Shown one piece after another: positions 9,755 through 43,871 of a DNA stretch of 64,000 bases. The DNA is taken from the NCBI GenBank assembly GCA_016872835.1, contig VGYX01000007.1, positions 9,184-73,183 on the forward strand, written 5' to 3'. Every line of letters begins with the position of its first letter. Positions within the stretch are counted from its first letter, which is position 1. A model generated the notes under the pieces. It made no database searches. It saw nothing but the letters and a program-made list of their open reading frames with translations, and was not told the origin of the DNA. The DNA is from Planctomycetota bacterium. GTDB lineage: Bacteria > Planctomycetota > Phycisphaerae > Phycisphaerales > SM1A02. A program made the position numbers and the translations under genes.

Positions 9755-9991
9755 GTGGCACAAAATGCCCGCATGACGGCCGAGGTCATGGATCGACCCG
9801 CGCAACTCGCGAACCTCGAGAGAGTCGCTTGCGCGCTGCCACACCTCGACCGACTGGTGCTCCAGTTGCGCTGGGCGGATGGACTGACTCGCGGAGAGAC
9901 CGCACTGGTGCTCGATGTGGAGGCCGCCAGCGTGCTGGCCGCCGAGATGCGCCTACGCAGGTGGTCTGCAGCTGCGGTGCCGATCAGTTGA
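9755..9991 (+). CDS. Small protein made only of a sigma-70 region 4 / ECF-type HTH-like segment
   Basis: 78 aa (alternative ATG at 9773). LPHLDRLVLQLRWADGLTRGETALVLDVEAASVLAAEMRLRR follows the region 4.2 pattern LP...R.V..LR...GL...E.A..L......V......R. GC3 is high and consistent with coding. No region 2 is present. Confidence 0.4.
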   Translation: MAQNARMTAEVMDRPAQLANLERVACALPHLDRLVLQLRWADGLTRGETALVLDVEAASVLAAEMRLRRWSAAAVPIS

Positions 9992-11018: not shown

Positions 11019-11041
11019 GGGTGGAAAGGGACGGTATACTG

Positions 11042-11938: not shown

Positions 11939-13952
11939 GCGGCGGCACAGTCGGCGGCGGCGCGACGGGCTGAGCGCCCGCGTTCGGTGCCGGCGTCGGC
12001 GTAGTGGTGCGACCCGTTGGAAGCGTGGAGGGCGACTTCGGCTGGGAGATCGTGGGTGGCGGTACGGGCTTCACGCCCAGATCGGGCGCCGGCGGCGCGC
12101 GCTGCGGTCCCAACTGACGCTCCGAGGGCTTGGTGCCCAAGCCCTGCGAGGGCAACACGCCCTGCGCCGTCACGGGCATCTCAAGCGCCTTCAGTTCCTC
12201 CTCCGACAGCGGCTTCACATCGGAGGGATCGGGCTGGTTTCCCTCCACGCCACTCTCGTTGAAGCCCCACGCGCCCATGCCCTGCACGGCCTCGCGCGCG
12301 CTCGGGATCGGCAGCACTTCACTCCAATCGATTCGCGCCTGTCCCAACTGCGTGCCGGTCGCGAACGCGAGGTCCACCAGCGAGATCTGCCAGGTGGCAA
12401 GAGCGCGAACCTCGCGGCTCTGCGCGTCGCCCAACCGCGCGGCCGCATCGAGCACGTCGATGCTGGTTCGAAGGCCCACGTCGAACTGTCGCTTCTCGGC
12501 CTCATATGTTCGCCCAGCCAGCGCGGTCTCCAGACGCGCCGCCAAGATGCGCCGCCATGAGTTCTCCAGATTGTCCATCGCGTTCAGCACTTCCTGCCGG
12601 ATCGACAAGCGGCGCTGGTCGCGTGTGGCGAGCCGCTGCAGCCGCGTCAGGATCGCCCCCTGGACACGGTTCTTGGCAGCCTCGTTCCCCAAGGGAATGC
12701 GCGCGTTCGCGGTGAGCGAATATTGATCGGCGTCACCGATGGAGTCCCACGACTGGACGAAACTGGTGCCGTATCCGAAGTACTGGTAGGTGTAGTCCAC
12801 CGTGAAGAGGGGCAGCGCCTGATTGCGCGCCAGGTCGATGTTGTTGGCGTCGATCGAGAGCTGCAGCTCGAGTTCGAGCATCTCCATGCGGTTGTCGATC
12901 GCCTTGGTGCTCATCCGCTCGGGATCGAACTGCAGCGATATGGGGCTCGGCAGCGTCTTGGTGGCCACGTACGTCGTGCCGTCAAGCGGGAGTTCCGGAT
13001 CGTTCATGATCCGCTTCAGATCACGCTGTCGCAGCCGCACCACGTTGTCGGCAAGAATGATCGCCTCCAGTCGGCTGCCCACGCCACTTTCGGCGCGGAT
13101 GATCTCCACCTCGGCCGTCTGACCAGCCTTCACGAGTCGCCGGGCCAGCTCCAGCTGCACCACGGCAAGCTCGTACTGCTGCAGCCGGACCTCCAACTCG
13201 CGCGTGGCGGAGTACAGGTTCCAATAGGCCCTGTCCACGTTCGCCAGCACACGAATCGCCTCCAACTTCGTGCGTGCATCCGCGATCTGGCTGTTCAACT
13301 TCGCGACACGGATGCTTGCCGTATTCGCCTCGATGCCCGCGCCACGCAAGAGCGGCTGAGCGATCGAGAACTGCAGGCCACTCTGATTGTCCTGGGAGGC
13401 CGGAATCAGTCCGGCGAGGTCCTGTTCCGCCAGGATCGACTGGGCGGACAGATCCACGGTTCCGCCGGTCGCCAACGGTACGGTAAGACCTGTGCCAAAC
13501 GTGTCCCGTGCCAACCCCTCGCCGCCCAGCACGCTCGAGACCAGATTCTGATCGTTGCGGTTGTAGTTGGAGAAGATGCTGGTCTCGAACTTCGCCATCT
13601 CCACCCCGACCGCCGACTCGGCGAGTGAGGGATTGAACAGCTGCACGCGCAGATCCAGGTTCCGTTCGAGCGCCAGCAGGCGGCAAGCGGCCAGCGTCAT
13701 CTCGCGCATCGGCGGCGGCTTCTGCCCGGGCAGTCGGTCGGCAGCAAGATCCTTCGATGCCTCCGCCAATGTTCGGGCAGGAATCGAACTTTCCCGAACA
13801 GGATCGAAGGTGCCCACCTCGCGTAGACGCTCGGGCGACGCGGTGTGTGGCGTCATCGAGTCACTGAAGAGCTCGTTCTGGCAGCCGAGCGCAGCCGACA
13901 GGACCAGCGCGACCGCCACCCGCACGATCCGAATCGTGCCATGCTCACTCAT
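11925..13952 (-). CDS. TolC/NodT-family outer membrane efflux protein with a Pro-rich C-terminal extension of about 135 aa
   Basis: Trimmed to MSEHGTIRIVRVAVALVLSAALGCQ (lipoprotein-like signal), 675 aa. It has the duplicated coiled-coil/beta-barrel OMF pattern and a tail rich in P/T/S (..PAPDLGVKPVPPPTISQPKSPSTLPTGRTTTPTPAP..PPPTVPPPSGG). It overlaps the upstream permease gene by 8 nt. Confidence 0.72.
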   Translation of the reverse strand: MSEHGTIRIVRVAVALVLSAALGCQNELFSDSMTPHTASPERLREVGTFDPVRESSIPARTLAEASKDLAADRLPGQKPPPMREMTLAACRLLALERNLDLRVQLFNPSLAESAVGVEMAKFETSIFSNYNRNDQNLVSSVLGGEGLARDTFGTGLTVPLATGGTVDLSAQSILAEQDLAGLIPASQDNQSGLQFSIAQPLLRGAGIEANTASIRVAKLNSQIADARTKLEAIRVLANVDRAYWNLYSATRELEVRLQQYELAVVQLELARRLVKAGQTAEVEIIRAESGVGSRLEAIILADNVVRLRQRDLKRIMNDPELPLDGTTYVATKTLPSPISLQFDPERMSTKAIDNRMEMLELELQLSIDANNIDLARNQALPLFTVDYTYQYFGYGTSFVQSWDSIGDADQYSLTANARIPLGNEAAKNRVQGAILTRLQRLATRDQRRLSIRQEVLNAMDNLENSWRRILAARLETALAGRTYEAEKRQFDVGLRTSIDVLDAAARLGDAQSREVRALATWQISLVDLAFATGTQLGQARIDWSEVLPIPSAREAVQGMGAWGFNESGVEGNQPDPSDVKPLSEEELKALEMPVTAQGVLPSQGLGTKPSERQLGPQRAPPAPDLGVKPVPPPTISQPKSPSTLPTGRTTTPTPAPNAGAQPVAPPPTVPPPSGG

Positions 13953-15186
13953 GCCGCAGCGCCTCGATCGGATCCAGTCTGGAGGCCTTGATGGCCGGGA
14001 ACATGCCGAACACCACGCCCACTCCCGCGCTGAACACGAACGCGAGCGCCACGGCCCACGCGGGCACGCTCGCGTTCTCAAGCTTCGCGCCCGGGATCTG
14101 GCTGACCGCGAACGCGAAGCCCTGCCCGATCAGCACGCCCACCAGACCGCCCACCAGACACAGGGTGACCGCCTCCAGCAGGAACTGCAGCAGGATCGCG
14201 GTCGGCGTGGCGCCCACGGCCTTGCGAAGGCCGATCTCGCGCGTGCGCTCGCTCACGCTCACCAGCATGATGTTCATGATGCCGATGCCGCCGACCAGCA
14301 GGCTGATGCCCACGATGCCACCCGCCACCGCGGTGATGCCGCTCGCGATGCTCTTGAACTGGTCGATGAACTGGTCGATGGCCTGCACGCGGAAGGTGTC
14401 GGGATCGCCTGGCGTCAGGCCGCGCACCTTGCGCAGCACGCGCGTGATCTCGGCGCGCGCGTCGTCGGCCTCGGCGGGCGAGTTCGCCAGCGCCACGAAG
14501 CGCATGAAGAAGTCGCGGTCCATGAACTTCTCCATCAGCGGATGCGGAATGAAGAGCTCCGCGCTGATGGTGTTGAAGCCCGTCATGCGCTCGGTGATCG
14601 TCTCCACCACGCCCACGATCAGGAACCGCCGTCCGCCGATGATCAGGTGCGTGCCCACCGGATCGGCCGGCAGCTGCAGGTCGCGCACCGCCAGGTCGTT
14701 CACCAGGCAGACCTGGCGCGCATTGTCGATGTCGAGCTGGCTGAAGGGCCGCCCCATGATCACCTGACGGTTCTCGGTGGCGTGCCACGCGGGCCAGATG
14801 CCGCTCACGCTCACACCCTCCAACGTCTCCGCCTCGCTCTGCACGCTCAGGCTGGTCTCGCTGATCGGCGTCAGCCCCTTCAGCGAGGTGCATTGATCGC
14901 GAAGCGCGAACGCCTCGGGTGCCTTCAGCCGGATCTTCTCCCACGGAAAGAGGTTCCTCGGCACGCCCTCGGGGCGGCTCGGCCACACGTACAGGCGCGC
15001 GGCGCCGAAGGTCTCGAACTCGGCCAGGACCTTCGTCTTCAGGCCGGTCAACGCCGCGATCACGGCGGTGGTGCTTGCCACGCCCACGATGATGCCAAGC
15101 GCCGTCAGGATGCTGCGAAGCTTGTTGGCCCAGATCTGCCGCAGGGCCAGCACCACGTTCTCGTAGTAGAAGAGTGGATTCAGCAT
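13945..15186 (-). CDS. ABC transporter permease, MacB/FtsX type with a large periplasmic domain
   Basis: 413 aa. An N-terminal TM helix is followed by a periplasmic domain of about 230 aa and then three C-terminal TM helices containing REIGLRKAVGAT, a typical FtsX-family motif. Confidence 0.85.
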   Translation of the reverse strand: MLNPLFYYENVVLALRQIWANKLRSILTALGIIVGVASTTAVIAALTGLKTKVLAEFETFGAARLYVWPSRPEGVPRNLFPWEKIRLKAPEAFALRDQCTSLKGLTPISETSLSVQSEAETLEGVSVSGIWPAWHATENRQVIMGRPFSQLDIDNARQVCLVNDLAVRDLQLPADPVGTHLIIGGRRFLIVGVVETITERMTGFNTISAELFIPHPLMEKFMDRDFFMRFVALANSPAEADDARAEITRVLRKVRGLTPGDPDTFRVQAIDQFIDQFKSIASGITAVAGGIVGISLLVGGIGIMNIMLVSVSERTREIGLRKAVGATPTAILLQFLLEAVTLCLVGGLVGVLIGQGFAFAVSQIPGAKLENASVPAWAVALAFVFSAGVGVVFGMFPAIKASRLDPIEALRHE

Positions 15187-15187
15187 C

Positions 15188-15940
15188 TCAGGCCGCGCTC
15201 CGGATCGCGGGCACCAGCGGACCGACGGCAGGATCCTGCTCGGCCGGCAGGTCGCTCAGCACCAGTCCGTCACGCAGCCGCACCACGCGCTGGCAGTGCG
15301 CCGCCACGTCGTTCTCGTGCGTCACCATCAGCACCGTCTGTCCATCCTGGTGGATCTGCTCGAAAAGCTTCAGGATCTCCTCGGTGGTCACAGTGTCGAG
15401 GTTGCCAGTCGGCTCGTCGGCCATCAGGATGCGCGGCTTCGCGATCAGCGCGCGCGCGATCGCCACGCGCTGCTTCTGGCCGCCGCTCAGCTGGTTCGGC
15501 CGGTGATCCATGCGCTGGCCCAGGCCCACCCGCTGCAGCGCCTCCTCGGCCAGCTTGCGTCGCTCGCGCGCCCAGCCCCATCCCTTTCCACGCGCGTACA
15601 GCAGCGGCAATTCCACGTTCTCGAGCGCCGTCAGACGCGGCAGCAGTTCGAAGCTCTGGAAGACGAAGCCGATCTGCTCGTTGCGGATCTGCGACAGTTC
15701 CGCCGCATCCAGCCCGCTCACCTCGCGTCCACTCAGGTGGTACGTGCCGGCCGTGGGACGATCCAGACAACCCAGCGTGTTCATCAGCGTGCTCTTGCCG
15801 CTGCCCGAACTCCCCATGATGGCAACCATCTCGCCCGCATGCACCGTCAGGTCCACGCCGCGAAGGGCGTGCACGATCTCCACGCCCACTTGGTAGACCT
15901 TCGTCACCCCCCGAACCTCGATGATCGGCTGCTGGGTCAT
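15188..15940 (-). CDS. ABC transporter ATP-binding protein (MacB/LolD-type)
   Basis: Trimmed to MTQQPIIEVRGVTKVY (250 aa). Walker A is GSSGSGKST, the signature is LSGGQKQR, Walker B is ILMADEPT, and the H-loop is VTHE. Confidence 0.92.
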   Translation of the reverse strand: MTQQPIIEVRGVTKVYQVGVEIVHALRGVDLTVHAGEMVAIMGSSGSGKSTLMNTLGCLDRPTAGTYHLSGREVSGLDAAELSQIRNEQIGFVFQSFELLPRLTALENVELPLLYARGKGWGWARERRKLAEEALQRVGLGQRMDHRPNQLSGGQKQRVAIARALIAKPRILMADEPTGNLDTVTTEEILKLFEQIHQDGQTVLMVTHENDVAAHCQRVVRLRDGLVLSDLPAEQDPAVGPLVPAIRSAA

Positions 15941-15947
15941 GTCGGAC

Positions 15948-17282
15948 TCAACGCATGCCCCTGCGTCCGCCTCCCATGGGCGGACCCATGCCGCCACCCT
16001 GCCCTCGTGCTTCCTCGGCGGCGGCCCAGCGGCTCGCGTCCTTCGAGGGATCCTCCTTCTCGACCGCTTCACCGTCCTTGAGCTTCTCCAGGGATCGATA
16101 CGGACCGGTGATGATGGTGTCACCCGCGGTCAGGCCTTCCTTGATGAGCGTGTCCGTCAGGTTGCTCGGGCCGGTCAACACCGGCGTCACGACGGCCTTG
16201 CCGTCGACCACCCGGAACACCACGGTGGTCACGCGGCGATTCTTCTGCACCAGCGGACTCGACTGCACCGATTCGGGCAGGTCGTTCACCGGACGCTCCA
16301 CCACGGCCTGACTGGGCACTATCAGCCCCTCCTGCCTCGCGATGTCGATGTCCACGTTCCCGGTGAGTCCGCTGAAGATCTGCCGACCCTTCAGGTCCAG
16401 GTTCACGAGCACCTTGAAGCTTCCGGTGCCGTCCTTCTCCACGGTGCGCTGCAGCGCGATCTCGCTCACCTTGCCGTCGAAGGGATCATCCTTGTAGGCA
16501 TTCACGTAGATCTTGGCGTCCTGACCCACGGCCACGCGCGCGATGTCGGTCTCCGCCACCTTCGCGTTCAGGTGCATCGCGCCCAGATCGGCCACGGTCA
16601 TGATCAGCGTGCCCGGACTGTTCATGATTCCCACCACCGCCAGCTCGCCCACCTCCGCCTTCAGGTACGTCACCAGGCCGTCGATGGGGCTCACGATCAC
16701 CGTTCGACGCACCGCCTCGCGCGACTGTTCGATCGTGGCCTCACTGGCCGCAAGCGACCTCTCCAACTGCGCGATCGTCTTCTCCGCGGCCTGTACCTGA
16801 CTCTCGATGTCGCGCGCACGCGCGATCGCGTCGTCGAGCTGCTGTCGGCTCACGTCACCCGTGTCGTGCAGGGCTTGCGTGCGCGCCAGGATCGCCCGCA
16901 CGTTCTCCTGATTCTGCTTTGCGCCCTGGATGCGGCTGCGCTCCGCCTCCAGACGGAAGCGGTCGCCGTCACGCCGCGCCTCGGCACCCGCGAGCGCGGC
17001 CTGCAGATCGCGGCCATCCATGCGAACCAGCACGTCGCCCTTCTTCACGCGCGCACCCTCGCGCGCCGGCAGCTCCATGATGCGGGCACTCACCTCAGCG
17101 CTCACGTCCACCTTGCTCTTGGGCTCCACCACGCCCGGGGCCGACACGCTCTCGACCAGCACGCCGTTCTTCACCTCGGTCATGCGGACTTCGGTGGCGC
17201 CCGTGCCGTCGGAGCTCATCATGAAGGCCACAGCGCCCCCAATCAGGCACAGCACGACGGCGATGATGAGATAGGTGCGCAT
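15948..17282 (-). CDS. Efflux periplasmic adaptor (HlyD/MacA family membrane fusion protein)
   Basis: N-terminal TM MRTYLIIAVVLCLIGG, then a long coiled-coil hairpin (..QAALAGAEARRD...IAQLERSLAASEATIEQS..), then beta-barrel and lipoyl-like regions. The ORF-track start at 17303 is TTG; ATG 17282 is preferred. Confidence 0.8.
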   Translation of the reverse strand: MRTYLIIAVVLCLIGGAVAFMMSSDGTGATEVRMTEVKNGVLVESVSAPGVVEPKSKVDVSAEVSARIMELPAREGARVKKGDVLVRMDGRDLQAALAGAEARRDGDRFRLEAERSRIQGAKQNQENVRAILARTQALHDTGDVSRQQLDDAIARARDIESQVQAAEKTIAQLERSLAASEATIEQSREAVRRTVIVSPIDGLVTYLKAEVGELAVVGIMNSPGTLIMTVADLGAMHLNAKVAETDIARVAVGQDAKIYVNAYKDDPFDGKVSEIALQRTVEKDGTGSFKVLVNLDLKGRQIFSGLTGNVDIDIARQEGLIVPSQAVVERPVNDLPESVQSSPLVQKNRRVTTVVFRVVDGKAVVTPVLTGPSNLTDTLIKEGLTAGDTIITGPYRSLEKLKDGEAVEKEDPSKDASRWAAAEEARGQGGGMGPPMGGGRRGMR

Positions 17283-17380
17283 GGGATCCCTGTTTAAGTC
17301 CAATAACTTGTCAGTACCCCCGTCGGAGGAGGCTACCTGTTTCGCCCAACCCGTGTGCTGGTTGCAGCCGAAGGGGGTGC

Positions 17381-17416
17381 AGGGAAAGGAAAAGCCCGCA
17401 GGGAGCGCCTGCGGGG
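17381..17416 (-). terminator. Rho-independent terminator downstream of paralogue 1
   Basis: On the minus strand, CCCGCAGG-cgcuc-CCUGCGGG (8-bp GC stem) is followed by CUUUUCCUUUCCC. It sits about 40 nt after the stop at 17457. Confidence 0.7.
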
Positions 17417-17456: not shown

Positions 17457-19661
17457 TTACTGGCAGGGTCCGGTGCTCAGCAGGATCAGTGCCACGTCAC
17501 CGAAGTCCACCTCGCCGGTGCCGTCCAGATCGCTGGCGCAGCCCGGGCAGCGACCGTAGTCCAGCAGGGCGAACGCCACGTCACCGTTGTCGACCTCGCC
17601 GCTGCCATCGATGTCACCGAAGCATGCGTTCACCACGCCCTTCAGTCGCAGCGCCGTCTTGTAGTAGATGTCCGGGTTGTCACCCGTCTGCACCACGTAG
17701 GTTGGCGTCGCGCTTGCCGCGTAGCGCCCGAAGCCCGACGTCGGCCAGTTCAAGCTTGCCCAGTAGGCGGGTCGGAAGCTCGTCGGGCTCTGCTGCGGAA
17801 TGCCGTTGGCCGCGTAGTAGAACACGCCAAACGCACCGTTCGTGGCTCCAGCCTTCTCCGGCTTCAGCACCCAGTAGTAGTCGCCCGAGAACAGGTCGAT
17901 CGGCGCAGTCAGATCGATGAAGTACCGCCGGCCGTAATCCGAGTTGATGTTCGCGTACGAATTCGGGTTGAAGGTCACGGTGCCCTCGGCCACCAACGTC
18001 TCGCCGTTGGCTTCACTGAAGGCGTTCAGCCAGTTGCCGGATCGGGAATACACGGCGTAGCGCAGGGTGTCCGCGATCGCCGCACCCGCAGGAAGCGTGT
18101 TGGCCGTGCTGTAGTTGAAGCCGACGAATTCGAAGCCGTCGATCGTGCCTCCGTTGATCAGCGTGAACGGCTGGGCGATCACGTAGCGTGCGTTCGTCGC
18201 GCTCTGATAGCCCGAGGTGTAGTAGAGATTCACCAGCGAGCTGTCGGAGACCTTCTTCACCCGCTTCTGACGACCGTTGTCGTACAGCGTCGAGCGATAG
18301 GCGACCGTCATGGAGCCCGGCGTGAGCGCCGGCGCATCGTCGGGGCTCTGTCCGTCGTCCAGGAAGGTTCCAAGCCGGATCAGGTAGTAGTTGCCCTGCG
18401 TGGTGCCCACCAGCGTGATGGCGGAAGGCCCGCCCGAATCCGTGGTGCCATCGCCGTCCTCGTCGCAGCTGTCGTCGCGGCAGCCCGCGTACTTCGTCGG
18501 CAGGTCCGACGGATCGCCGATGTCGGGGCTCGCACCAAGGTTGTAGATGCTCACCACGGAGTCGCCGAAGTTGCCGAGCCCGCACATGGTGACTCGAAGG
18601 TCGCCGTCGGTCGGTGCGGGGCCCGCCAGGTACCACACGTCGCGCGCGGTGTTGCTGGAGCAGAGCGAGTTCACGTTGTTCGGGCCATCCGTGTTGGCGC
18701 CCGTGTTGTCGAAGCCGAACGTGATGGAGCCTCCGGCCAGGTCGATCTGGGCCGGTGTGGTGAAGCAGTCGTTGTCCGTGATCGGATTCACGCACGCGAA
18801 CACGAAGTTCCCGCACTCCGCAACGCCGACCTGCACGCAGTTGGCGTCCCAGGCCACATTGCAGCACTCGGTATTGAACTGACAGACGGTCTCGCAGCAC
18901 AGCGCGTCATTGCAGCCGGGCTCGGTGCTGGCCTGGGTGCACTCCCCCGCCGCCGTACCACACGAGGCGCTGTCCAGCGCGCTCACGGTGACATCCAACG
19001 CATAGAGCACTGGTCCGTCGTACTTGGTGGGCGCGCTGGTGGGATTGAAGGCCGTCGAGATCACCAGCACCACGTCGCCCGCAGGCGCCGGGATGCGGAA
19101 GCGTTCAATGCCGTTCGGCAGGCGCACCAGCGGAACCTGCGGGCATCCATCCGAGTCGAAGGCGCCGGCCACCAGCGTCTTCGCCGAGGCCTGCACCGAA
19201 CCCGAATACATCGAGAGGTAGCTCTGCTCCCCACCCGCGAAACCCACCGGCGCCCCATCCACGGTGCGCCCCATCGACAGCGTGACTTCCAGATAGCAAC
19301 TGGCCGGCACCGAGAAGCGCAGCCAATCCAGGTCTCGCGAGCTGGAACTGGTGCCATTCAGTGGAACGAAGGTCCCGACCTCGCCAGTGAATCGAAAGCT
19401 CGAACCCACCGACTGCGCACCAAGCTCGCTGAACGCGGCCGGGGTGACGTTCCATCCACCATTCGGATCAGGATCCGCCACGCCGTCCAGATCGGCGTCG
19501 ACACCGTTGTTGAATCCAGTCTCGACCAGACCGGCGCCACTCGCGGGGTCCGCAAGGTTGCACACCTGCGCCCAAGCCGCGCCAGTCGTGCCGATCACAA
19601 GCCATGCGCCCAACGAGCGCCCGAGGAAGGTCGCGAGATTCTTCATTTGCATCTGATTCAC
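17457..19661 (-). CDS. Secreted multi-module protein, tandem paralogue 1 of 3; function unknown
   Basis: 734 aa from GTG 19661 (ATG alternatives at 19652 and 19646). The signal-like N-terminus ends AWAQVC. Other blocks are RDLDWLRFSV, the 10-Cys module SCGTAAGECTQASTEPGCNDALCCETVCQFNTECCNVAWDANCVQVGVAECGNFVFAC, ARDVWY..GDSVVSIYNLG, and GCRDDSCDEDGDG. The tail is CFGDIDGSGEVDNGDVAFALLDYGRCPGCASDLDGTGEVDFGDVALILLSTGPCQ. Confidence 0.8.
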   Translation of the reverse strand: MNQMQMKNLATFLGRSLGAWLVIGTTGAAWAQVCNLADPASGAGLVETGFNNGVDADLDGVADPDPNGGWNVTPAAFSELGAQSVGSSFRFTGEVGTFVPLNGTSSSSRDLDWLRFSVPASCYLEVTLSMGRTVDGAPVGFAGGEQSYLSMYSGSVQASAKTLVAGAFDSDGCPQVPLVRLPNGIERFRIPAPAGDVVLVISTAFNPTSAPTKYDGPVLYALDVTVSALDSASCGTAAGECTQASTEPGCNDALCCETVCQFNTECCNVAWDANCVQVGVAECGNFVFACVNPITDNDCFTTPAQIDLAGGSITFGFDNTGANTDGPNNVNSLCSSNTARDVWYLAGPAPTDGDLRVTMCGLGNFGDSVVSIYNLGASPDIGDPSDLPTKYAGCRDDSCDEDGDGTTDSGGPSAITLVGTTQGNYYLIRLGTFLDDGQSPDDAPALTPGSMTVAYRSTLYDNGRQKRVKKVSDSSLVNLYYTSGYQSATNARYVIAQPFTLINGGTIDGFEFVGFNYSTANTLPAGAAIADTLRYAVYSRSGNWLNAFSEANGETLVAEGTVTFNPNSYANINSDYGRRYFIDLTAPIDLFSGDYYWVLKPEKAGATNGAFGVFYYAANGIPQQSPTSFRPAYWASLNWPTSGFGRYAASATPTYVVQTGDNPDIYYKTALRLKGVVNACFGDIDGSGEVDNGDVAFALLDYGRCPGCASDLDGTGEVDFGDVALILLSTGPCQ

Positions 19662-19784
19662 AATGGGATCACACGGCCCACCACACGGGCCTGCGTGCAG
19701 TATGAACCAGAATCGCCGCCTGTCAGGGGCGAAACGGTCGATTGCGCGAAACTTTCCCCGACGCGGGGTGGGCGCCGTCGCGCC

Positions 19785-21950
19785 TCACTGACAGGGTCCG
19801 GTGCTCAGCAGGATCAGGGCCACGTCGCCGAAGTCGACCTCACCGGTGCCGTCCAGATCGCTGGCGCAGAGCTGGCAGGAACCGAAGTCCAGCAGGGCAA
19901 ACGCCACGTCACCATTGTCGACCTCCATGCTGAAATCCAGGTCACCGAAGCACGGCATCGAACTCACGGGCGTTCCCTTGAGCTTGATGGGTGCGTGGTA
20001 CAGCACGCCAGCACGATCGCCCGTCTGCACGCGATACGTCGCCGTGGAGCTGGCCGTCGTGAGCACCCACGTGCCCGGGGCGGTCGCGTAGTTCTTGGCG
20101 TTCCACCAGCAGGCGCGGTTGTTCGCCGGGTTGAAGTGCTCGATGCCGTCCTGACCGTACACATAGAAGCCCAGCGCACCGCTGGTCGAGCCCGCCGTGG
20201 TGCCCTTCAGGCCCATGAAATAGGACCCGGCCGTCAGCATGAACGGGGTCGGGAAGTCCAGGAAGTAGCGGCGGCCCGCGTCGGAACTGATGTTCGAGTA
20301 GGCCGTGCTGTCGAAGACGAGCTCGCCCTCGGCGACCACGGTGTTCACGCCGGGATTCCAGGTTCCCATCCACGCCGCACTGCTTCCGTCACGCGCGAAG
20401 ATCACCCACTTCACGCGATCGGCGATCGCGGAGGCACTCGTCGGTACGGTGGTGCTTGCGCAGAACTCCAGACCCTCCACCTGCGCGTCCTCCGGGAGGG
20501 TGAACGGCGTCGCCAGCATGTAGTCCGCATCGGTCGTCGAGCGATAGCCCGTCTGCACCGTGAGATTCAAGGCCGTGTTGTCAGAGTTGCGAATCACCTG
20601 ACGCTGACGACCGCTGTTCCACAGGGTCGTGCGCACGTTGAAAGACACCTGCCCCTGCAGCGCGAGGGCCGAGTCCGGATCCGCGCCGGGCTCCAGATAG
20701 GTGCCGATCCGGATCAGGTAGGTGTTGTCCTTCAACACGTTCACCATGGTGTACGCCGATGGTCCGCCGGCGTCGGTGGTGCCATCGCCGTCGTCATCGC
20801 AATAGTCGTCGCGGCAACCCCGATACAGCGCCGGAAGCGTCTGGCCATCGGCAAGACCCGTCACTGCGCCCAGGTTGTAGGTCGAGATCACCGAATCGCC
20901 AAGATTGCCGACGCCGCACATGCTGATGGTCACATCCGCGTCCGCGGGCATCGGGCCGATCTGGTACCAGATGTCGCGCGCGGTCAGCGCACCGCACAGC
21001 TCCAGCAGGTTGTTTGGGCCATCCGTGCTGGCGTTCGTGGTGTCGAAGGCGCGCACCACCGGCATCGAAGCGACATCAATGATTTCGGGCGAGGTCGCGC
21101 AGTCGTTGGCCGGACCACCCGCGTCGCAGGCGTAGACGAAGTTGCCGCACTCTGACACACCAGTCTGGATGCAGTTGTTGTCCCAAGCCACACTGCAGCA
21201 GTCGGGCTCTAGGGTGCAGACCAGATCACAACACGCAGCGTCGCTGCAACCAGACGTGGCGCGAGCGGTCACGCAGTTGCCCGTCGCCGTTCCGCATGAC
21301 GCATTGTCCAGCACCTGCAGCGTCACGTCGAGTCCGTACAGGATCGGGCCCGCGTAGAGGGAGGCATCCTTCGGCGTGGTCGCGATCACCAGCACGTCGG
21401 CGCCCGCGGCGACGGGCACCCGCACCTGGGTGCGTCCGTTTGGATACACATAGGTCGAGCCATTCGGGCAGCCGACCTTGGCGGTGTTGGACAGTTCAAC
21501 GGCCTCTGTCTGCGACTGCACATTGCCGGTGTACACCGACAGTTCACTCACCTCACCCTGCCCAAAGGGCAGCACGAAGCCCCCAAGGTCGCGGCCCATC
21601 GAAAGTGTGATCGCGGCGTAGCACGGACCGGTCGCCGTGAAACGGATGAAGTCAAGGTCACGGAAGTTGGTCCCGCTCGTGCCGGAGTAGTTGCCCACCT
21701 GACCGGTCACGCGGAAGCTGGTCCCAGGCGCGTGCGTGCCAGCCTCAAGGAACGGGTACAGACCTGTTCCGGGATCGGCCGGGGTAAACCAGCCACCGTT
21801 GCCGTCCTTCAGGATCGCCTGATTGAAGCCGCCGTCCACCAGCGTGGCGGGTGAGGCCGGAGAATCCAGATCACACACCTCCGCCGTTGCAACGGAAGCG
21901 GCAACGGAGGCGATGGACATGGAGATCGCGATTCGGATCGTGGGGCGCAT
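19785..21950 (-). CDS. Secreted multi-module protein, tandem paralogue 2 of 3; function unknown
   Basis: Trimmed to MRPTIRIAISMSIASVAASVATAEVC (721 aa). The module order matches paralogue 1: RDLDFIRFT, SCGTATGNCVTARATSGCSDAACCDLVCTLEPDCCSVAWDNNCIQTGVSECGNFVYAC, ARDIWY..GDSVISTYNLG, GCRDDYCDDDGDG. The tail is CFGDLDFSMEVDNGDVAFALLDFGSCQLCASDLDGTGEVDFGDVALILLSTGPCQ. Confidence 0.8.
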   Translation of the reverse strand: MRPTIRIAISMSIASVAASVATAEVCDLDSPASPATLVDGGFNQAILKDGNGGWFTPADPGTGLYPFLEAGTHAPGTSFRVTGQVGNYSGTSGTNFRDLDFIRFTATGPCYAAITLSMGRDLGGFVLPFGQGEVSELSVYTGNVQSQTEAVELSNTAKVGCPNGSTYVYPNGRTQVRVPVAAGADVLVIATTPKDASLYAGPILYGLDVTLQVLDNASCGTATGNCVTARATSGCSDAACCDLVCTLEPDCCSVAWDNNCIQTGVSECGNFVYACDAGGPANDCATSPEIIDVASMPVVRAFDTTNASTDGPNNLLELCGALTARDIWYQIGPMPADADVTISMCGVGNLGDSVISTYNLGAVTGLADGQTLPALYRGCRDDYCDDDGDGTTDAGGPSAYTMVNVLKDNTYLIRIGTYLEPGADPDSALALQGQVSFNVRTTLWNSGRQRQVIRNSDNTALNLTVQTGYRSTTDADYMLATPFTLPEDAQVEGLEFCASTTVPTSASAIADRVKWVIFARDGSSAAWMGTWNPGVNTVVAEGELVFDSTAYSNISSDAGRRYFLDFPTPFMLTAGSYFMGLKGTTAGSTSGALGFYVYGQDGIEHFNPANNRACWWNAKNYATAPGTWVLTTASSTATYRVQTGDRAGVLYHAPIKLKGTPVSSMPCFGDLDFSMEVDNGDVAFALLDFGSCQLCASDLDGTGEVDFGDVALILLSTGPCQ

Positions 21951-22083
21951 TGGCTGTGGACTCCCGAGAGATGGGCGTGGCGTTCGCCGAGAGCACACCT
22001 CGACATATTCCCAATGTGACCCGCCAACGCCCGCGTTCCAACATCAAAGGCCTGTTTCCAATCGAAGACCGGCCACTCATCCG

Positions 22084-22120
22084 CAAAAAGGAGGACCCCC
22101 CGGCGCAAGGCCGGGGGGTC
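22084..22120 (-). terminator. Rho-independent terminator downstream of paralogue 3
   Basis: On the minus strand, GACCCCCCGGC-cuugc-GCCGGGGGGUC (11-bp stem) is followed by CUCCUUUUUGCGG. It sits about 40 nt after the stop at 22161. Confidence 0.85.
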
Positions 22121-22160
22121 GTGTACCCGTAGTGATGTGCCTTCTCAGATCAGCCGTGCA

Positions 22161-24425
22161 TCAGGAGCACGGACCGGTGCTGAGGAGGATGAGGGCGACG
22201 TCACCGAAGTCGACCTCGTTGGTACCGTCGAGATCGGCCGCGCAACCCGGGCATTGCCCGAAATCGAGCAGGCAGAACGCCACGTCGCCGTTGTCGACTT
22301 CATTGTTTCCGTCGAGGTCGCCGAAGCAGGCGACAGCGAGGTCACCCTTGATGCTGAACGCGGGCTGGAAGGTCAGGCCCTGGTTGTCATCGGACTGCGG
22401 CGTGTAACTCTCGGTCGTGCCATTCGCCTCGAACAGCTGGTAGGCGATCATCTCGGGACCCGGGCCAATGCCACGCCAACCGAACGCCTTGCCGGCGACC
22501 GTCGGACCAGCGGGGTTGGTACCGGTGTTGTTGAGCGAGAGGAGATACTGGTCGGGGATACCCTCGATGCCGTAGCTGAGCCACGCGAAGTACGTGCCAG
22601 TCGTCGTGCCTTCCGAGTTGTCGCCGTAGCAGGTGAAGTAGTAGTCACCTGCCGCGAGCTCGAACGCCGCGCTGAGGTCGACGAAGTAGCGCTGGCCGTA
22701 ACGGTCACCGACGTCCGCGAAGGCCTCGATGTCGAACGGTTCGATGCCCTCGAAGAGGACCTGCGAAGCATCGAACATGCCGGCGCCGAACGGACGGCTG
22801 AAGGCCCCGTGATCCGTGTCGGCGCTGTTACGCGCGATGACCTTCCAGGCAACCCGGTCTGCGACGCCGGAATCACTGCCGAAGGCGGTGAAGTCGAAGC
22901 CGTTGACTGAGGCTGGCTCCAAGGTGGAGAAGGGCACGAACATCCAACGCTTGGGGTTGGTGGATGAAGCGACACCCGAAATCCAGCCCAGGTTTACGTT
23001 GGTACCGTCCGCCTTCGCCAGCGCCTCCTGCGCGCCGTTGCTGAACAGCTGGGCACGGAAGCTCACGTTCAAGCTGCCGGTGAGACCAGCGATGCTTGGG
23101 TCGTTCGGATCCTGACCAGCATCCAGGAAGCTGCCGAGGCGGAGCATGTAGTACTCGTCCTTCAACACGCCAATCAAGTTGATGCCGGCGGGACCACCGA
23201 AGTCGAGCTGACCGTCGTCGTTGTCGTCACACACGTCGTCGCGGCAGCCGATGTAGAGGTCCGGCAGCTTGCTGCCGTCGTCCAGCGACGAGATCGGCGT
23301 GCCGGCGGTGTCGGTGCCCAGCCCATAAACGCTGAGGACCGCGTCACCGGTGTTGCCGGCATCGCACATGCTCGCGCGGAGCTCGCCGTCATACGGCAGC
23401 GGGCCCACCACGTACCACACGTCACGGGTGGTGTTGCTCGAGCAGAGCGCGTTCACGTTGTTGGGACCGTCGTTCGTCGCCTGCGAAGCGTCGAAGCCGA
23501 AGGTGATCGGCAGCGTAGTCGCATCGATGAACTCGGCCTGGCCCGCACAGTCGTTCGGCACGCTGGCGTTCGTCACGCACTCGTACACGAACAGACCGCA
23601 CTCCTCAACGCCCGTTTGGATGCAGGACGCATCCCACCCCACGTTGCAGCAGTCCGGGACGAACAGGCAGACGGTGTCGCAGCACAGCGGGTCATTGCAG
23701 CCGGGCGACGTGTTCACGTCCGTGCAGTTGTTGGTGCTGGTGCCGCACGAGGCGTTGTCCAGATTGACGATCTCCAGGTCGATCGCGTAATTGATCGGGC
23801 CGGTGTAACGCGCCTCGTCGAATGGCGTGGTCACCACGATCATGTGCTGGCCCGCGGGCACCGGCACCTTCGCGCTGGTGGTGCCGTTGGGAAGCGTGGC
23901 CTCCACGACCTGCGGGCAGTCGGTCGTCAGACCCTGGCCGTAGATGAAGAGCGCGCCTTCGTCACCGCAGTACACGGTGTTGTCAGCCGTGGACGGGCCG
24001 GTGGCCACGAACACGACGGACTGGGTCGCCGGATCACCCAGCGCCGAGAACGGCACGCCGTCCTTCGACATGCTGACCGTGACCTTGATGTAGCAGGGCT
24101 GGGTGACGGTAAAGCGCCACCAGTCGAGATCGCGGCGATTGCCGCCGTCGGAGCCGAGGTAGTTGCCGGTCAGGCCCTTCGCGCGGTACGCGCCGGGGGC
24201 AAGGGTGCCGAGCTCGGCGAACGCGGGCTCGCCGAGGTTGCAACCGCCGTTCTCGTCGGGGTCATCGGAGCCGTCGTAGTCGGAGTCGACATTGTATTCC
24301 CACGCGGTGTCGGCGGGAAGGTTGCCCGCGCTGTCGGTGTCGCACACCTGCGCGTAACAGAGTGACGCAAAGCCGGTCAGCGACGCGAAGGCCGCCAGGC
24401 TTGCGAAGAGGTTCTCACGCTTCAT
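22161..24425 (-). CDS. Secreted multi-module protein, tandem paralogue 3 of 3; function unknown
   Basis: 754 aa. AGGAGA lies 8 nt upstream of the ATG. The signal-like N-terminus is MKRENLFASLAAFASLTGFASLCYAQVC. Blocks are RDLDWWRFTV, SCGTSTNNCTDVNTSPGCNDPLCCDTVCLFVPDCCNVGWDASCIQTGVEECGLFVYEC, TRDVWY..GDAVLSVYGLG and GCRDDVCDDNDDG. The tail is CFGDLDGNNEVDNGDVAFCLLDFGQCPGCAADLDGTNEVDFGDVALILLSTGPCS. Confidence 0.85.
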   Translation of the reverse strand: MKRENLFASLAAFASLTGFASLCYAQVCDTDSAGNLPADTAWEYNVDSDYDGSDDPDENGGCNLGEPAFAELGTLAPGAYRAKGLTGNYLGSDGGNRRDLDWWRFTVTQPCYIKVTVSMSKDGVPFSALGDPATQSVVFVATGPSTADNTVYCGDEGALFIYGQGLTTDCPQVVEATLPNGTTSAKVPVPAGQHMIVVTTPFDEARYTGPINYAIDLEIVNLDNASCGTSTNNCTDVNTSPGCNDPLCCDTVCLFVPDCCNVGWDASCIQTGVEECGLFVYECVTNASVPNDCAGQAEFIDATTLPITFGFDASQATNDGPNNVNALCSSNTTRDVWYVVGPLPYDGELRASMCDAGNTGDAVLSVYGLGTDTAGTPISSLDDGSKLPDLYIGCRDDVCDDNDDGQLDFGGPAGINLIGVLKDEYYMLRLGSFLDAGQDPNDPSIAGLTGSLNVSFRAQLFSNGAQEALAKADGTNVNLGWISGVASSTNPKRWMFVPFSTLEPASVNGFDFTAFGSDSGVADRVAWKVIARNSADTDHGAFSRPFGAGMFDASQVLFEGIEPFDIEAFADVGDRYGQRYFVDLSAAFELAAGDYYFTCYGDNSEGTTTGTYFAWLSYGIEGIPDQYLLSLNNTGTNPAGPTVAGKAFGWRGIGPGPEMIAYQLFEANGTTESYTPQSDDNQGLTFQPAFSIKGDLAVACFGDLDGNNEVDNGDVAFCLLDFGQCPGCAADLDGTNEVDFGDVALILLSTGPCS

Positions 24426-24538
24426 GAATCATTTCTCCTACGGGTACTCGGTCGTACAGTCTTTCTCCGCCTCGGAGACGCTTCCGGGGCTTGCAACGCA
24501 TACAAATGAACCACGCCATGTGTGGATGGTGTCGACCC

Positions 24539-25032: not shown

Positions 25033-26064
25033 TCAGCGCCAGTCCACCACGACCTTGCCGAACTGCTGGCCTGACTCAAGTCGGGCATAGGCCTCGGACC
25101 CCTGTTCCGGGAGCAGCGTCGAATCGATGACCGGCCGGATCGCGCCCGTCCGGAAAAACTGCACGACTTCCCGGAACTCCTGCATCGAGCCCATCGTGCT
25201 GCCGAGAATGCTGAGCTGATTCCAGAACACCCGCGCCAGATCCAGGGTGCCTTCGAAGCCGCTGGTGCAGCCACACGTCACGAAGCAACCACCCCGCGCC
25301 ATGCCACGTACACACGCGGGAAGCACGGAACGGCCGACCGAGTCGATCACGATGTCCACCCCCCGACGACCCGTGGCGGCGCGTACGGCCTTGGACCAGT
25401 CGCTGCCGTCGTCCAGAATCGCATGGTCGGCACCAAGTTCGCGAGCACGCTGCAACTTGTCCGCGTGGCGACTTGTCACGATGGTGCGGCAGCCGACATG
25501 GCGCGCCAGACCCAACGCCGCAAGCGCCACGCCTCCACCGATGCCGGTGATCAGCACGGTCTGACCCGGGCGAACATGAGCCCGCGTGACCAGCATGCGA
25601 TAGGCCGTCAGGTGCGTCAGGCCGAAGGCGGTGGCCTGCACCGGATCGGCGTCGCCGATGTCCAGAAGATTGGTGACCGGTGCCACGAAGAACTCGGCCA
25701 TGGTGCCCGGCGAATGCTCGCCGATCATGTGAATGTCCTCGCCGGCATCGACGTGATCCGGATGCCCGGCACCCGATCGAATGATCGCCGCGTTCAACAG
25801 CACGCGGCGGCCCACCCAGGAAGGATCCACGCCCGGGCCCACCGATTCGATCCGTCCCGCGCCATCCGAACCGGTCACGGTCGGAAACTTCGTGTCAAGG
25901 CCGGGCAGGCCGCGCCCCACCCAAAGATCGAGATGGTTCAGCGCCGATGCCTCGGTTCGAACGCGGGCCTCGCCGACACGCGGTTCCGGCAGCGCACGAT
26001 CCTTCGTGAACTGGACGTTCGCCGCGACGGGGCTTCCTTGACGAAGAATCTCGACTGCTCGCAT
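25033..26064 (-). CDS. Medium-chain (zinc-type) alcohol dehydrogenase / quinone oxidoreductase family protein
   Basis: 343 aa. It has a GroES-like N-terminal domain (ASALNHLDLWVGRG) and the Rossmann motif VLITGIGGGVALAALGLA. Confidence 0.75.
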   Translation of the reverse strand: MRAVEILRQGSPVAANVQFTKDRALPEPRVGEARVRTEASALNHLDLWVGRGLPGLDTKFPTVTGSDGAGRIESVGPGVDPSWVGRRVLLNAAIIRSGAGHPDHVDAGEDIHMIGEHSPGTMAEFFVAPVTNLLDIGDADPVQATAFGLTHLTAYRMLVTRAHVRPGQTVLITGIGGGVALAALGLARHVGCRTIVTSRHADKLQRARELGADHAILDDGSDWSKAVRAATGRRGVDIVIDSVGRSVLPACVRGMARGGCFVTCGCTSGFEGTLDLARVFWNQLSILGSTMGSMQEFREVVQFFRTGAIRPVIDSTLLPEQGSEAYARLESGQQFGKVVVDWR

Positions 26065-27232: not shown

Positions 27233-28663
27233 TCAGAACGAGACTGACACGCGGAAGGTCAGGATCCACGCGCCGCCGATGTCGTATTGCGACTGGTCGC
27301 TGGGCTGACGGACCCACTGCAGATCCGGCTGGATGCCAAGCCACGGCGTGACCTGAATGTTGTAGAAGGCTTCCGCCACGTACTCGCCCTCGCCGGGCGA
27401 GACGCCCAGATACGGCAGATTGCTCATGTGCGCGTAGGCGAACAGGAAGCCTGCGGTGTCGTTCGGGCGCGCCTCGAGAATGCCCTTCCAGTCCGCGCCA
27501 CCCATGATCGACCACTGCGATGGATTCTGCGAGGGCGGGCTCCAGCCGAATTGCCCGAAGAGTGAAAGGCCCTGCCCTTGCGTCGCACCCTCGGGCTGGA
27601 AGACGGTCTGCGAGAACGATGTATACAGGCCCCACGGACCCTCGACATCCGCGTCACCCCCTGGCGAGGGAACCATGGAGGTGTTGGGCGCGGCGGATGG
27701 GCCCGTCTGGTCGAACCAGCCGATGTTCGCATGGCCTGGGTTCTTCGCATCGCTCCAGCGGAAGTCGACCTCGCTGATCAGGAAGTAGCTGCCAGGGTTG
27801 TCCCAGAAGAAACCGCCCACCCCGCGCCGACCCGATGCAGGACCGGACTGGCCCGTGGAGGGGTCGTACCAGTTGGTGGAGCCGTCGAACATGCCGAACT
27901 TGGCGTCGATCCAGTCGATCGGTTGCAGCAGGATCTCGAATCCGCCCGCCTGGTTGGGATAGGTGGGAAGATCCTGCGCCATCACCGACGGTATGTACGC
28001 GGCAGAGTTCACGAACTGCAGGTCCGGATAGCTCACCGCGAAATCCACGTTCGCGTCGATCTTGCCGAGCTTCAGCCGCAATGCGCCATCCGCGAACGAC
28101 TGCTGGTACCAGTACTGGCCCAGTTCGGTGAAGTCCTGCGCGAACGGATACACCGCGTCCCAACCCCAGTAGTCGGGCACGTAGTCGGTGGCTAGATTCG
28201 TGGAACCCGCCTGCTGGAAGTCGATGAAGGCCTCGCCACCCTGCCAAAGTCCCATGCGACTGGTGTCGATCGACAGGTTCACATCGATCAGGTAGGGCAT
28301 CACGAAACCCTGCTTGGGCGTGTCACCCATCACGGTCGCAAGATCCAGGGTGGCGGTTCCGTTGAAGGCTACGCCCGAGTCGCTGAGCTTGTCGCGAAGT
28401 CCACCCCAGTTTCCCGTGAGGTCCGCGGTGGCCCAGGGCCATGTGCCGTTCGCGTCCGGTTCATTGAAGGTCGGGCTCTGCGGGCCCGTCGAAGTTCCCT
28501 CGGTCACGGCTTCGGGGCGCGGCGATGGCGGCGTGGGTGCCTGCTGCGGTGCAGCGTCATTGCCGACCGCGGACGCGGTGATGGCGGTGCAGAACAGGAT
28601 GGGCAGCACGCGGCGCAATGATGGAAGGGATAGCACAAGACCGATGACGCTCGCATCTACCAT
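27233..28663 (-). CDS. Carbohydrate-selective porin OprB-family outer membrane protein
   Basis: Trimmed to MVDASVIGLVLSLPSLRRVLPILFCTAITASAVG (476 aa). LTGNWGGLRDKLSDSGVAFNGT resembles the OprB N-terminal motif. There is alternating beta-strand character and a C-terminal ...RVSVSF ending in Phe. Confidence 0.55.
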   Translation of the reverse strand: MVDASVIGLVLSLPSLRRVLPILFCTAITASAVGNDAAPQQAPTPPSPRPEAVTEGTSTGPQSPTFNEPDANGTWPWATADLTGNWGGLRDKLSDSGVAFNGTATLDLATVMGDTPKQGFVMPYLIDVNLSIDTSRMGLWQGGEAFIDFQQAGSTNLATDYVPDYWGWDAVYPFAQDFTELGQYWYQQSFADGALRLKLGKIDANVDFAVSYPDLQFVNSAAYIPSVMAQDLPTYPNQAGGFEILLQPIDWIDAKFGMFDGSTNWYDPSTGQSGPASGRRGVGGFFWDNPGSYFLISEVDFRWSDAKNPGHANIGWFDQTGPSAAPNTSMVPSPGGDADVEGPWGLYTSFSQTVFQPEGATQGQGLSLFGQFGWSPPSQNPSQWSIMGGADWKGILEARPNDTAGFLFAYAHMSNLPYLGVSPGEGEYVAEAFYNIQVTPWLGIQPDLQWVRQPSDQSQYDIGGAWILTFRVSVSF

Positions 28664-28669
28664 GTCGGC

Positions 28670-37245: not shown

Positions 37246-37264
37246 GGCGTGTTTCTCTCTTCGC

Positions 37265-38383: not shown

Positions 38384-38415
38384 GGTTGGTTTCTTGGAAG
38401 CTGATTGTTGGGGGC

Positions 38416-39746: not shown

Positions 39747-39757
39747 GTGTTCTCCGA

Positions 39758-41050: not shown

Positions 41051-41051
41051 G

Positions 41052-41729: not shown

Positions 41730-41730
41730 G

Positions 41731-42345: not shown

Positions 42346-42368
42346 CTCTTGGGATTCCGGTGCTTCAA

Positions 42369-43867
<1,499 letters not shown>

Positions 43868-43871
<4 letters not shown>

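Follow-up and report, generated by a model that had tools for sequence, protein, structure and literature searches.

A tandem array of modular secreted proteins with predicted dockerin tails in Phycisphaerales

The array and its transcription signals

Three large genes stand in tandem on the minus strand of a 64,000-nucleotide stretch of DNA from a Planctomycetota bacterium of the order Phycisphaerales (GenBank assembly GCA_016872835.1, contig VGYX01000007.1, positions 9,184 to 73,183), the whole of which is called the window here. They encode three paralogous proteins, par1, par2 and par3, which carry a Sec signal peptide, share one order of five modules and end in a tail that is a predicted dockerin. 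The gene for par1 occupies positions 17457–19661 (734 amino acids, aa), that for par2 positions 19785–21998 (737 aa when read from the first GTG) and that for par3 positions 22161–24425 (754 aa). The probable start of par2 is an ATG at 21950, which is preceded by GGGAG at 21961–21965 and yields 721 aa, the approximate length given by the initial annotation of this DNA, whose three same-strand open reading frames (ORFs) are all present. par3 has an AGGAGA Shine-Dalgarno sequence at 24434–24439, 8 nt ahead of its ATG.

The transcription signals around the genes agree with the description given at the outset, namely strong intrinsic terminators after par3 and par1 and none between par2 and par1. 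The terminator after par3 (22094–22120, minus strand) has an 11-bp stem, 10 of whose pairs are G-C, and then a T-run, and the one after par1 (17395–17415, minus strand), also a hairpin with a T-run, sets the array apart from the genes of a MacAB-type pump that lies directly downstream. The spacer between par2 and par1 contains no strong terminator, only a weak hairpin, together with a sigma-70-like promoter match at 19699–19726 on the minus strand (CTGACA-16-CATACT) that is a consensus match only. In all genomes with related genes, a strong terminator of the hairpin-plus-T-run kind stands behind almost every single family gene, and the copy next to the pump has one as well.

Shared architecture, export and cysteine content

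The three proteins are 44–49% identical over their full length and every one of their modules is significantly paralogous, since each of five segments of par1 finds both other genes with E values of 1e-20 to 1e-45 (tblastn, within the window). The modules are named D1, CYS, D2, D3 and DOC, and their limits on par1 are residues 1–31 for the signal peptide, 35–230 for D1, 231–292 for CYS, 293–455 for D2, 456–678 for D3 and 679–734 for DOC. On the DNA (minus strand throughout), the parts of par1 correspond to 19569–19661 for the signal peptide, 18972–19559 for D1, 18786–18971 for CYS, 18297–18785 for D2, 17628–18296 for D3 and 17460–17627 for DOC. Those of par2 lie at 21306–21881 (D1), 21126–21308 (CYS), 20658–21107 (D2), 19974–20633 (D3) and 19788 to about 19955 (DOC), and those of par3, whose signal peptide comprises residues 1–25, at about 23757–24350 (D1), 23574–23759 (CYS), 23058–23555 (D2), 22344–23060 (D3) and 22164–22331 (DOC). 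All of the motifs by which the common architecture was first described are found in the proteins: A(Q/E)VC where the signal peptide ends, RDLD(W/F).RF(S/T), (A/T)RD(V/I)WY...GD(S/A)V.S.Y(N/G)LG, GCRDD.CD(E/D)(D/N)(G/D)DG and the duplicated D.DG.(G/N)EVD..GDVA of the tail. The DPD.NGG(W/C) stretch occurs in par1 and par3, as had been noted, and par2 has a shortened KDGNGGW.

A pattern-based Sec signal is present in all 33 aligned members of the family, with a K/R-containing n-region, a hydrophobic core and an A-x-A|Q-(x)-C cleavage site, which are the features of a Sec-secreted substrate of signal peptidase I. The cleavage sites in the array are AWA|QVC (par1), ATA|EVC (par2) and CYA|QVC (par3), with a cysteine at +2 or +3. 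A lipoprotein reading was rejected in the absence of a lipobox. The family proteins contain 23–28 cysteines, and in par1 those of the conserved core fall at positions 34, 122 and 173 and within 234–290, 299–399 and 680–733.

Scans of the three proteins against Pfam, NCBIfam and PHROGs gave no significant match. One weak PHROGs match of par2 (E 0.0088, 17 bits) was judged to be due to chance, as was a match to iota-carbonic anhydrase in the Protein Data Bank (PDB; E 0.005), which covered only a short GDYY-type strand. Searches of PDB sequences with a three-sequence profile and with a D3 profile returned nothing meaningful, cluster look-ups gave no informative names, and all public relatives are named "hypothetical protein". 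An AlphaFold2 model of par1 from a 33-sequence alignment (mean predicted local distance difference test score, pLDDT, 80) shows sandwiches for D1, D2 and D3, three short helices for CYS and two helices for DOC. The fold search with this full-length model returned only generic multi-sandwich proteins with template modelling (TM) scores of at most 0.17, and D3 was therefore modelled separately. Neither the family databases nor the structure searches assigned the full-length proteins to a characterised family. The initial annotation had also seen no catalytic motif, and this held: the Pfam, NCBIfam and PDB sequence searches gave no catalytic family, structural matches were to binding domains only, and the alignment columns that are invariant or nearly so across the family contain Cys, Gly, Asp, Trp, Asn, Arg, Tyr, Pro, Ala, Phe and Leu, with no conserved set of His, Ser, Glu or Lys.

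The predicted dockerin tail

The C-terminal module had been described as a double EF-hand tail. It does consist of two Ca2+-loop-plus-helix repeats, and profile matches to solved dockerins now refine that description to a specific type. The consensus of 28 tails is C.GDLDGSG.VD.GDVA..LLD.GPC.GC..DLDG.GEVDFGDVAL.LL..GPC, in which each repeat is bracketed by cysteines. The loops follow D-x-D-x-S/N-G-x-V-D-x-x-D, as DIDGSGEVDNGD and DLDGTGEVDFGD, and are followed by predicted helices at residues 692–700 and 720–728. The tail thereby has the build of dockerins, two tandem segments of about 22–25 residues in which a Ca2+ loop of the form D-x-[DN]-x-[DNS]-G-x-[IV]-[DN]-x-x-D precedes a helix. All three array proteins end in ...LILLSTGPC(Q/S).

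The tail profile matches the solved dockerins of Clostridium perfringens NagH (2jnk/2ozn, 2.2e-6) and Cel48 (2y3n_B, 5.9e-5), as well as 2ccl, 1ohz and 8ajy; Xyn10B and ScaH are among the proteins matched, and calmodulin-type EF-hands rank after the dockerins. The full-length family profile also matched at least nine dockerins (best 5.8e-5). Pfam Dockerin_1 (PF00404) matches 12 of 33 members, and two distant members score above its cut-off (34.6 and 34.4 vs 22.9 bits). The NCBIfam model NF041540, "GC-type dockerin domain-anchored protein", aligns end to end (positions 1–63 of 67) with 13 of the 28 tails; the best E value among the 28 is 8.6e-7, and the best of the individually tested tails scores 23.7 bits, below the cut-off of 29. 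NF041540 gave no match to the three array tails or to the full proteins. The array tails are nonetheless in register with the tails that match it and share its hallmarks, an extreme C-terminal dockerin-like domain that ends in Gly-(Pro)-Cys in a member of the Planctomycetota. Literature searches on "GC-type dockerin" found nothing. By its sequence features, DOC is classed as a predicted dockerin of a divergent, four-cysteine, GPC-terminated DLDGSGEVD(N/F)GDVA subtype.

The same tail is common outside the array. In the fetched loci of related genomes (L numbers below), DOC stands at the end of more than 100 different ORFs, which often lie next to one another, and most of these ORFs have no Pfam match. 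Those with recognisable domains comprise a GH13 alpha-amylase, two PAD_porph-type deiminases, propellers of the RCC1, lactonase-like, LVIVD and FG-GAP types, a beta-helix/PMP protein and a lamin-tail-domain protein (L043:7580-10150, L045:7601-10237, L059:7868-10228, L054:7658-10180, L017:13075-14970, L055:1118-3907, L082:6353-10171). In a few proteins DOC is N-terminal or internal, a placement that weakens a reading of DOC as an obligate C-terminal sorting signal and is more easily reconciled with an interaction module.

Between the paralogues the tail is 80–86% identical, compared with 31–63% for the other modules (31–44% for D1 and D3). The rate of nonsynonymous change (dN) in the tail is 0.13–0.18 vs 0.28–0.83 in the other modules, and the synonymous rate (dS) of the tail in comparisons with par3 is saturated to the same degree as elsewhere in the gene, at 1.1–1.6, for which reason gene conversion was rejected as the cause of tail conservation in these comparisons. 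For par1 and par2 the tail dS is 0.26, over 56 codons only, vs 1.0–1.7 in the rest of the genes, and a recent local gene conversion between these two tails is possible. The tail is under strong purifying selection. A conserved tail on divergent cargo is what one would expect of many cargo proteins that have a single partner to fit.

A fourth DOC-like ORF lies in the window at 9984–11087 (minus strand, 367 aa). It is unrelated to the array, has no Pfam match and scores 14.7 bits, sub-threshold, against NF041540. Its tail ends in LILLDFN without the terminal GPC, and at the 5' end the ORF overlaps the beginning of a divergently oriented prepilin-type N_methyl gene (11021–11938, plus strand). The ORF is syntenic in L002, L005, L009 and L081.

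The modules D1, CYS, D2 and D3

The two blocks that flank CYS had been likened, in the case of the RDLD block, to beta-sandwiches of the pre-peptidase C-terminal (PPC) type, a guess that is weakly supported for D1. PPC (PF04151), a beta-sandwich of about 70 residues, matches 12 of 33 members at E<=1, all of them sub-threshold, and lies over D1 in six of ten individually scanned members. Its cut-off of 25.9 bits is approached by a best score of 25.2 (relative P0033, over D2) and by 24.6 within the alignment called A3, and there is no PPC match in the three window proteins themselves. The family profile also aligns over D1 with the collagen-binding domain of clostridial collagenases (E 0.02–0.06), and weak matches to GBD_T9SS_assoc, a galactose-binding-domain-like family, were found over D2 in two of the ten scanned members. 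D1 may therefore be described as a PPC-like (collagenase collagen-binding-like) sandwich and D2 as PPC/galactose-binding-like, both weakly supported and both in the sense of resemblance rather than membership. An origin of D1 and D2 by internal duplication was not supported, as their mutual similarity is not significant (E 0.13).

CYS is a unit of about 55 aa with 10–11 cysteines and the consensus CG..aG.C.....tPGC.D..CC..VC..DPfCC...WD..C...A...C. In par1 the 57-aa module reported earlier exists at residues 234–290 and contains 11 cysteines instead of the 10 then counted. Among 167 fetched proteins 766 instances of CYS were counted, in tandem arrays of up to 26 copies (e.g., P0025, P0037 and P0040), and the Pfam copy searched does not recognise the unit. 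Two relatives carry a precomputed PF26780, which lies outside that Pfam copy and may be the CYS repeat.

D3 corresponds to the stretch of about 250 aa that had been called beta-rich, and the prediction bears this out: modelled alone from 26 sequences (pLDDT 91.7, predicted TM score 0.88), it is all-beta with 13 strands and no helix. The best PDB matches are weak (E 1.6e-4, TM 0.35–0.47) and all non-catalytic, comprising the cyanophage A4 capsid protein, the phi812 baseplate, the central fibre of mycobacteriophage Douge, the ligand-binding domains of EphA4 and EphA7, the PHR domain, RANKL/TRAIL, the claudin-binding domain of C. perfringens enterotoxin and a gingipain adhesin domain. Comparison with predicted viral structures brought out a likeness of D3 to domains at the distal end of minor-tail and collagen-like fibre proteins (TM 0.40–0.48). 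No sequence-level relative of D3 with a solved structure was found. From its model, D3 appears to be a jelly-roll "knob" without a close known relative.

Family distribution and evolution

A word-indexed protein search returned only about 15 close relatives, a second one, run with a broader alignment, brought in hardly any further members, and a third with the tail profile returned mostly contig-end fragments. With an exhaustive profile search the number of proteins rose to 10,876 at E<=1e-3, or 230 at the stricter limit of E<=1e-30, and about 35 clusters at 50% identity span the whole profile. With module hidden Markov models built from alignment A3, and with the family defined as all five modules in fixed order, the arrangement D1-CYS-D2-D3-DOC was found in at least 37 sequences, the three of the window and 34 others. 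D3 is restricted to this family and truncated versions of it, whereas D1, CYS, D2 and DOC are found in dozens of other architectures and are shuffled across a very large set of Planctomycetota proteins. The idea of an undescribed secreted family is supported, with refinements: no curated family or solved structure covers the proteins by sequence and all members have a Sec signal, but most modules are shared. The family falls within a recognised class, the dockerin-bearing modular secreted proteins of Planctomycetota; it has no curated model of its own, and what is specific to it is D3 and the fixed order.

In species-representative genomes, full-length members occur only in metagenome-assembled genomes (MAGs) whose neighbouring genes match those of the window. 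Some of these MAGs bear the unrelated labels Bifidobacterium, Singulisphaera or Actinomycetota, and most come from freshwater (Lake Mendota, Swedish lakes). The five-module family is confined to Phycisphaerales. Copy number is one in L087, L088 and L090, two in L005, L009, L013 and L085, and three in the window, L001, L006 and L007. In a neighbour-joining tree the par1, par2 and par3 lineages are older than the divergence between the window genome and L005, L006 and L009, and the tree shows a birth-and-death history, with losses of par1 in L009 and of par2 in L005 as well as independent duplications in L013, L001 and L085. Compared with L009 and L005, the ratio dN/dS is 0.08 for par1, 0.12 for par2 and 0.33 for par3 (flanking genes 0.01–0.13); all copies are therefore functional, with par3 the least constrained, and these ratios together with intact ORFs dispose of the alternative that the genes are pseudogenes.

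Family copies in L006 (5133-7276) and L007 (1572-6187) are split into overlapping or adjacent ORFs, which are either frameshifted pseudogenes or MAG assembly errors. An extra 689-aa protein in the same block of L088 (5366-7435) has shuffled D1, CYS and DOC modules without D2 or D3.

The conserved locus and the neighbouring pump

A MacAB-type tripartite pump (11925–17303, minus strand) lies directly downstream of the array. It comprises genes for a membrane fusion protein (MFP, 15948–17303), an ATP-binding cassette (ABC) ATPase (15188 to about 15950), a MacB/FtsX permease (13945–15186) and a TolC-like outer-membrane efflux protein (OEP, 11925 to about 13900). Upstream of the array, on the same strand, are ClpS (24675 to about 24990) and a zinc-type alcohol dehydrogenase/quinone oxidoreductase (25033–26064). 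In every genome with enough context, family genes stand between the zinc-type alcohol dehydrogenase (usually followed by ClpS) and the MFP-ABC-MacB-OEP genes, all on one strand. This order was seen in the window, L001, L002/L005, L006, L009, L013, L085, L087, L088 and L090/L091, and is kept at family identities down to 28–34% and MacB identities down to 65%. The closest genome, L009, has MacB and MFP proteins 100% and 96% identical to those of the window. The terminator behind the last family copy makes the pump a separate transcription unit.

Comparison with known systems

The closest parallels are the cellulosomal and non-cellulosomal type I dockerins (PF00404), with which DOC shares a length of about 56 aa, a duplicated loop-plus-helix, a usually C-terminal position and profile-level similarity. 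As in cohesin-dockerin systems, one tail is found on many secreted proteins of one organism and is more conserved than its cargo. Unlike type I dockerins, DOC has four conserved cysteines that bracket the repeats and a terminal GPC, the host is a Gram-negative-type planctomycete, the family cargo lacks a catalytic domain or known carbohydrate-binding module, and no cohesin was identified. The likeness to NF041540 lies in the C-terminal dockerin-like domain, the G-(P)-C end and the occurrence in Planctomycetota; the array tails differ as a divergent subtype that the model does not match.

For the Nemodlikiaceae, which are freshwater Phycisphaerae, Andrei et al. (2019, ISME J; PMC6461901) proposed a "planctosome", a surface complex of cohesins and dockerins that is non-cellulosomal. 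That model is itself hypothetical and was built on peptidases, an adaptor and a cohesin-bearing anchoring protein (PMC6461901). The present case resembles it in the freshwater planktonic Phycisphaerae concerned, in the idea of dockerin-tagged secreted proteins assembled at the surface and in the involvement of lamin-tail-domain proteins, but the present family did not figure in the planctosome model (PMC6461901). No cohesin was found here.

For single modules, PPC and the collagen-binding domain of clostridial collagenase share with D1, and more weakly with D2, an (R)D(L/V)D(W)Y.F-type strand motif and a predicted sandwich; they differ in that scores are sub-threshold and no peptidase is attached to the family. 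The jelly-roll knobs of phage minor-tail and collagen-like fibre tips, the Eph ligand-binding domain, PHR and TNF-like proteins share the predicted fold class of D3 and a distal position beside a tethering module, whereas the match is weak (TM 0.40–0.48, 8–16% identity) and shows no sequence homology. Substrates of type I secretion of the RTX kind are likewise acidic, carry a C-terminal Ca2+-binding module (as predicted for the family) and are encoded directly upstream of ABC, MFP and outer-membrane protein genes. The family differs from them by its Sec signal peptide, 23–28 cysteines, lack of GGxGxD repeats, a MacB/FtsX-type rather than HlyB-type transporter and an intervening terminator, and no RTX family match was found in the three proteins (Pfam, NCBIfam). 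A type I secretion substrate was rejected on account of the signal peptide, the many cysteines and the MacB-type ABC protein.

Interpretation and alternatives

On balance, and with moderate confidence, the array is best explained as a set of tandem paralogues from a family that is specific to Phycisphaerales and whose exported, modular members would serve as non-enzymatic binding subunits docked into a dockerin-based surface system. The proteins would be made with a cleavable Sec signal peptide (A-x-A|Q-x-C) and would fold outside the cytoplasm, where many disulfides and probably Ca2+ would stabilise a layout of a PPC-like D1, a small helical disulfide knot (CYS), a PPC/galactose-binding-like D2, a jelly-roll D3 and a four-cysteine dockerin. 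After export across the outer membrane, which we infer, the dockerin may act as a common handle that attaches the family protein, together with the amylase, deiminases, propellers and lamin-tail-domain proteins, to one cohesin-like partner at the surface. The sandwich modules, chiefly the fast-diverging D1 and D3, would bind a ligand such as a polymer, a particle or a cell surface, in preference to a structural role, and repeated local duplication and loss could have built the array and diversified its binding specificity.

Several points weigh against this account. No cohesin-like partner was identified within the window or elsewhere, and the window's own tails reach neither the Pfam Dockerin_1 nor the NCBIfam NF041540 threshold. 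The case for D3 as a binding domain is a fold-class argument, with TM scores of at most 0.48, and the lack of a known catalytic motif is not proof that catalysis is absent. Binding and docking do not account for the strict adjacency of the family to a MacAB-type pump. Nor do they account for the odd number of conserved core cysteines, 23 in all (three in D1, 11 in CYS, five in D2 and four in DOC), which may mean that one cysteine is free or that pairing takes place between modules or molecules.

Another explanation is that the proteins are structural components of the envelope or surface layer, abundant disulfide-cross-linked blocks whose dockerin and CYS modules serve assembly and not ligand capture. 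The proteins are very cysteine-rich and have no enzyme signature, in relatives CYS is strung into stalk-like arrays that reach 26 copies, and each gene is monocistronic. As is usual for highly expressed genes, par2 and par3 have a good ribosome-binding site and nearly every family copy is followed by a strong terminator. Planctomycete envelopes also contain cystine-rich proteins. Against such a role stand a copy number of one to three, the loss of paralogues in close relatives without replacement, the absence of an S-layer or SLH-type signal, and the divergence of D1 and D3 (31–44% identity), which suits specificity modules better than lattice contacts; we regard a structural role as rather unlikely. 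A cryptic enzyme, with an undescribed catalytic site in D3 or in the D1-D2 pair as in a cellulosomal subunit, would agree with the fact that dockerins usually carry enzymes and with the identical tail type on the amylase and deiminases, and the full-length fold search does list the two-jelly-roll enzyme PHM. The match to PHM reaches a TMq of only 0.11–0.14, however, the conserved columns lack the His, Ser, Glu, Lys and Met set typical of catalysis or of PHM copper sites, all D3 matches are non-catalytic and no enzyme family or PDB sequence matched, which leaves this alternative improbable. Weaker again is the case for a secreted toxin or antagonistic effector whose sandwich receptor-binding modules deliver toxicity against competitors or grazers. 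It could draw on Cry toxin domains, the claudin-binding domain of C. perfringens enterotoxin and phage receptor-binding knobs among the fold matches, on the raised dN/dS of par3 (0.33) and on variable copy number. The TM scores are low, the proteins lack a toxin domain of the pore-forming or enzymatic kind, no small gene resembling an immunity gene stands beside the array, overall selection is purifying, and the locus lies in a core housekeeping region without a mobile island, so that a toxin is very improbable.

The adjacent MFP-ABC-MacB-OEP pump suggests a further alternative, in which the protein is the functional partner or cargo of the pump, either exported, released or matured by it or acting outside the cell on its exported product. 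MacB-type systems export Sec-delivered periplasmic proteins such as the enterotoxin STII, and the related Aat system exports dispersin. Wherever a genome offers enough context, and despite family identities of 28–34%, the family lies immediately upstream of the pump in the same orientation, which speaks for such a link. It has to be set against the strong terminator between the family gene and the MFP gene in nearly all genomes, the equal conservation of unrelated upstream genes (alcohol dehydrogenase, usually ClpS and DUF1573), which makes the arrangement look like block synteny, the implausibility of passing a folded, disulfide-rich Sec substrate of about 75 kDa through a TolC-like duct, and the more than 100 other proteins with the same tail that are not linked to a pump. 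We consider the link improbable in this broad form, and a shade more so in the stricter one, that of a dedicated extracellular partner which is released, matured or exported by the pump or which captures or processes its product. Were the partnership real, it would explain the lasting co-oriented adjacency across Phycisphaerales while the family diverged to less than 30% identity, and no large modular protein would have been tied to a MacB-type system before.

For the freshwater Phycisphaerales, uncultured bacteria that abound in lakes, the analysis supplies a testable list of parts: a four-cysteine dockerin variant on a large and varied secreted proteome, a widespread 55-aa Cys-knot repeat, and a locus-bound "knob" family that is apparently non-enzymatic and is duplicated and lost like a specificity determinant. 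If docked binding subunits are the right explanation, the family proteins would be candidates for the subunits that capture substrates or particles in a surface complex of planctomycetes, and the tail would be a handle for finding the missing cohesin-like scaffold. The gain is one of annotation rather than a conceptual surprise, the tail type being already curated by NCBI in a sister form.

Genomic setting

The array sits in the core housekeeping genome. An origin on a mobile island was rejected in view of the flat GC content and the housekeeping character of the flanks. Elsewhere in the window are a CysN-CysC fusion (297–2201), a tRNA-Thr(CGT) gene (2060–2140), a tmRNA (2384–2732), an OprB-family porin with a long N-terminal extension (27233–28999) and a gene cluster for cytochrome oxidase and an ACIII-like complex (NrfD, Fe-S subunit) at 35545–47230.

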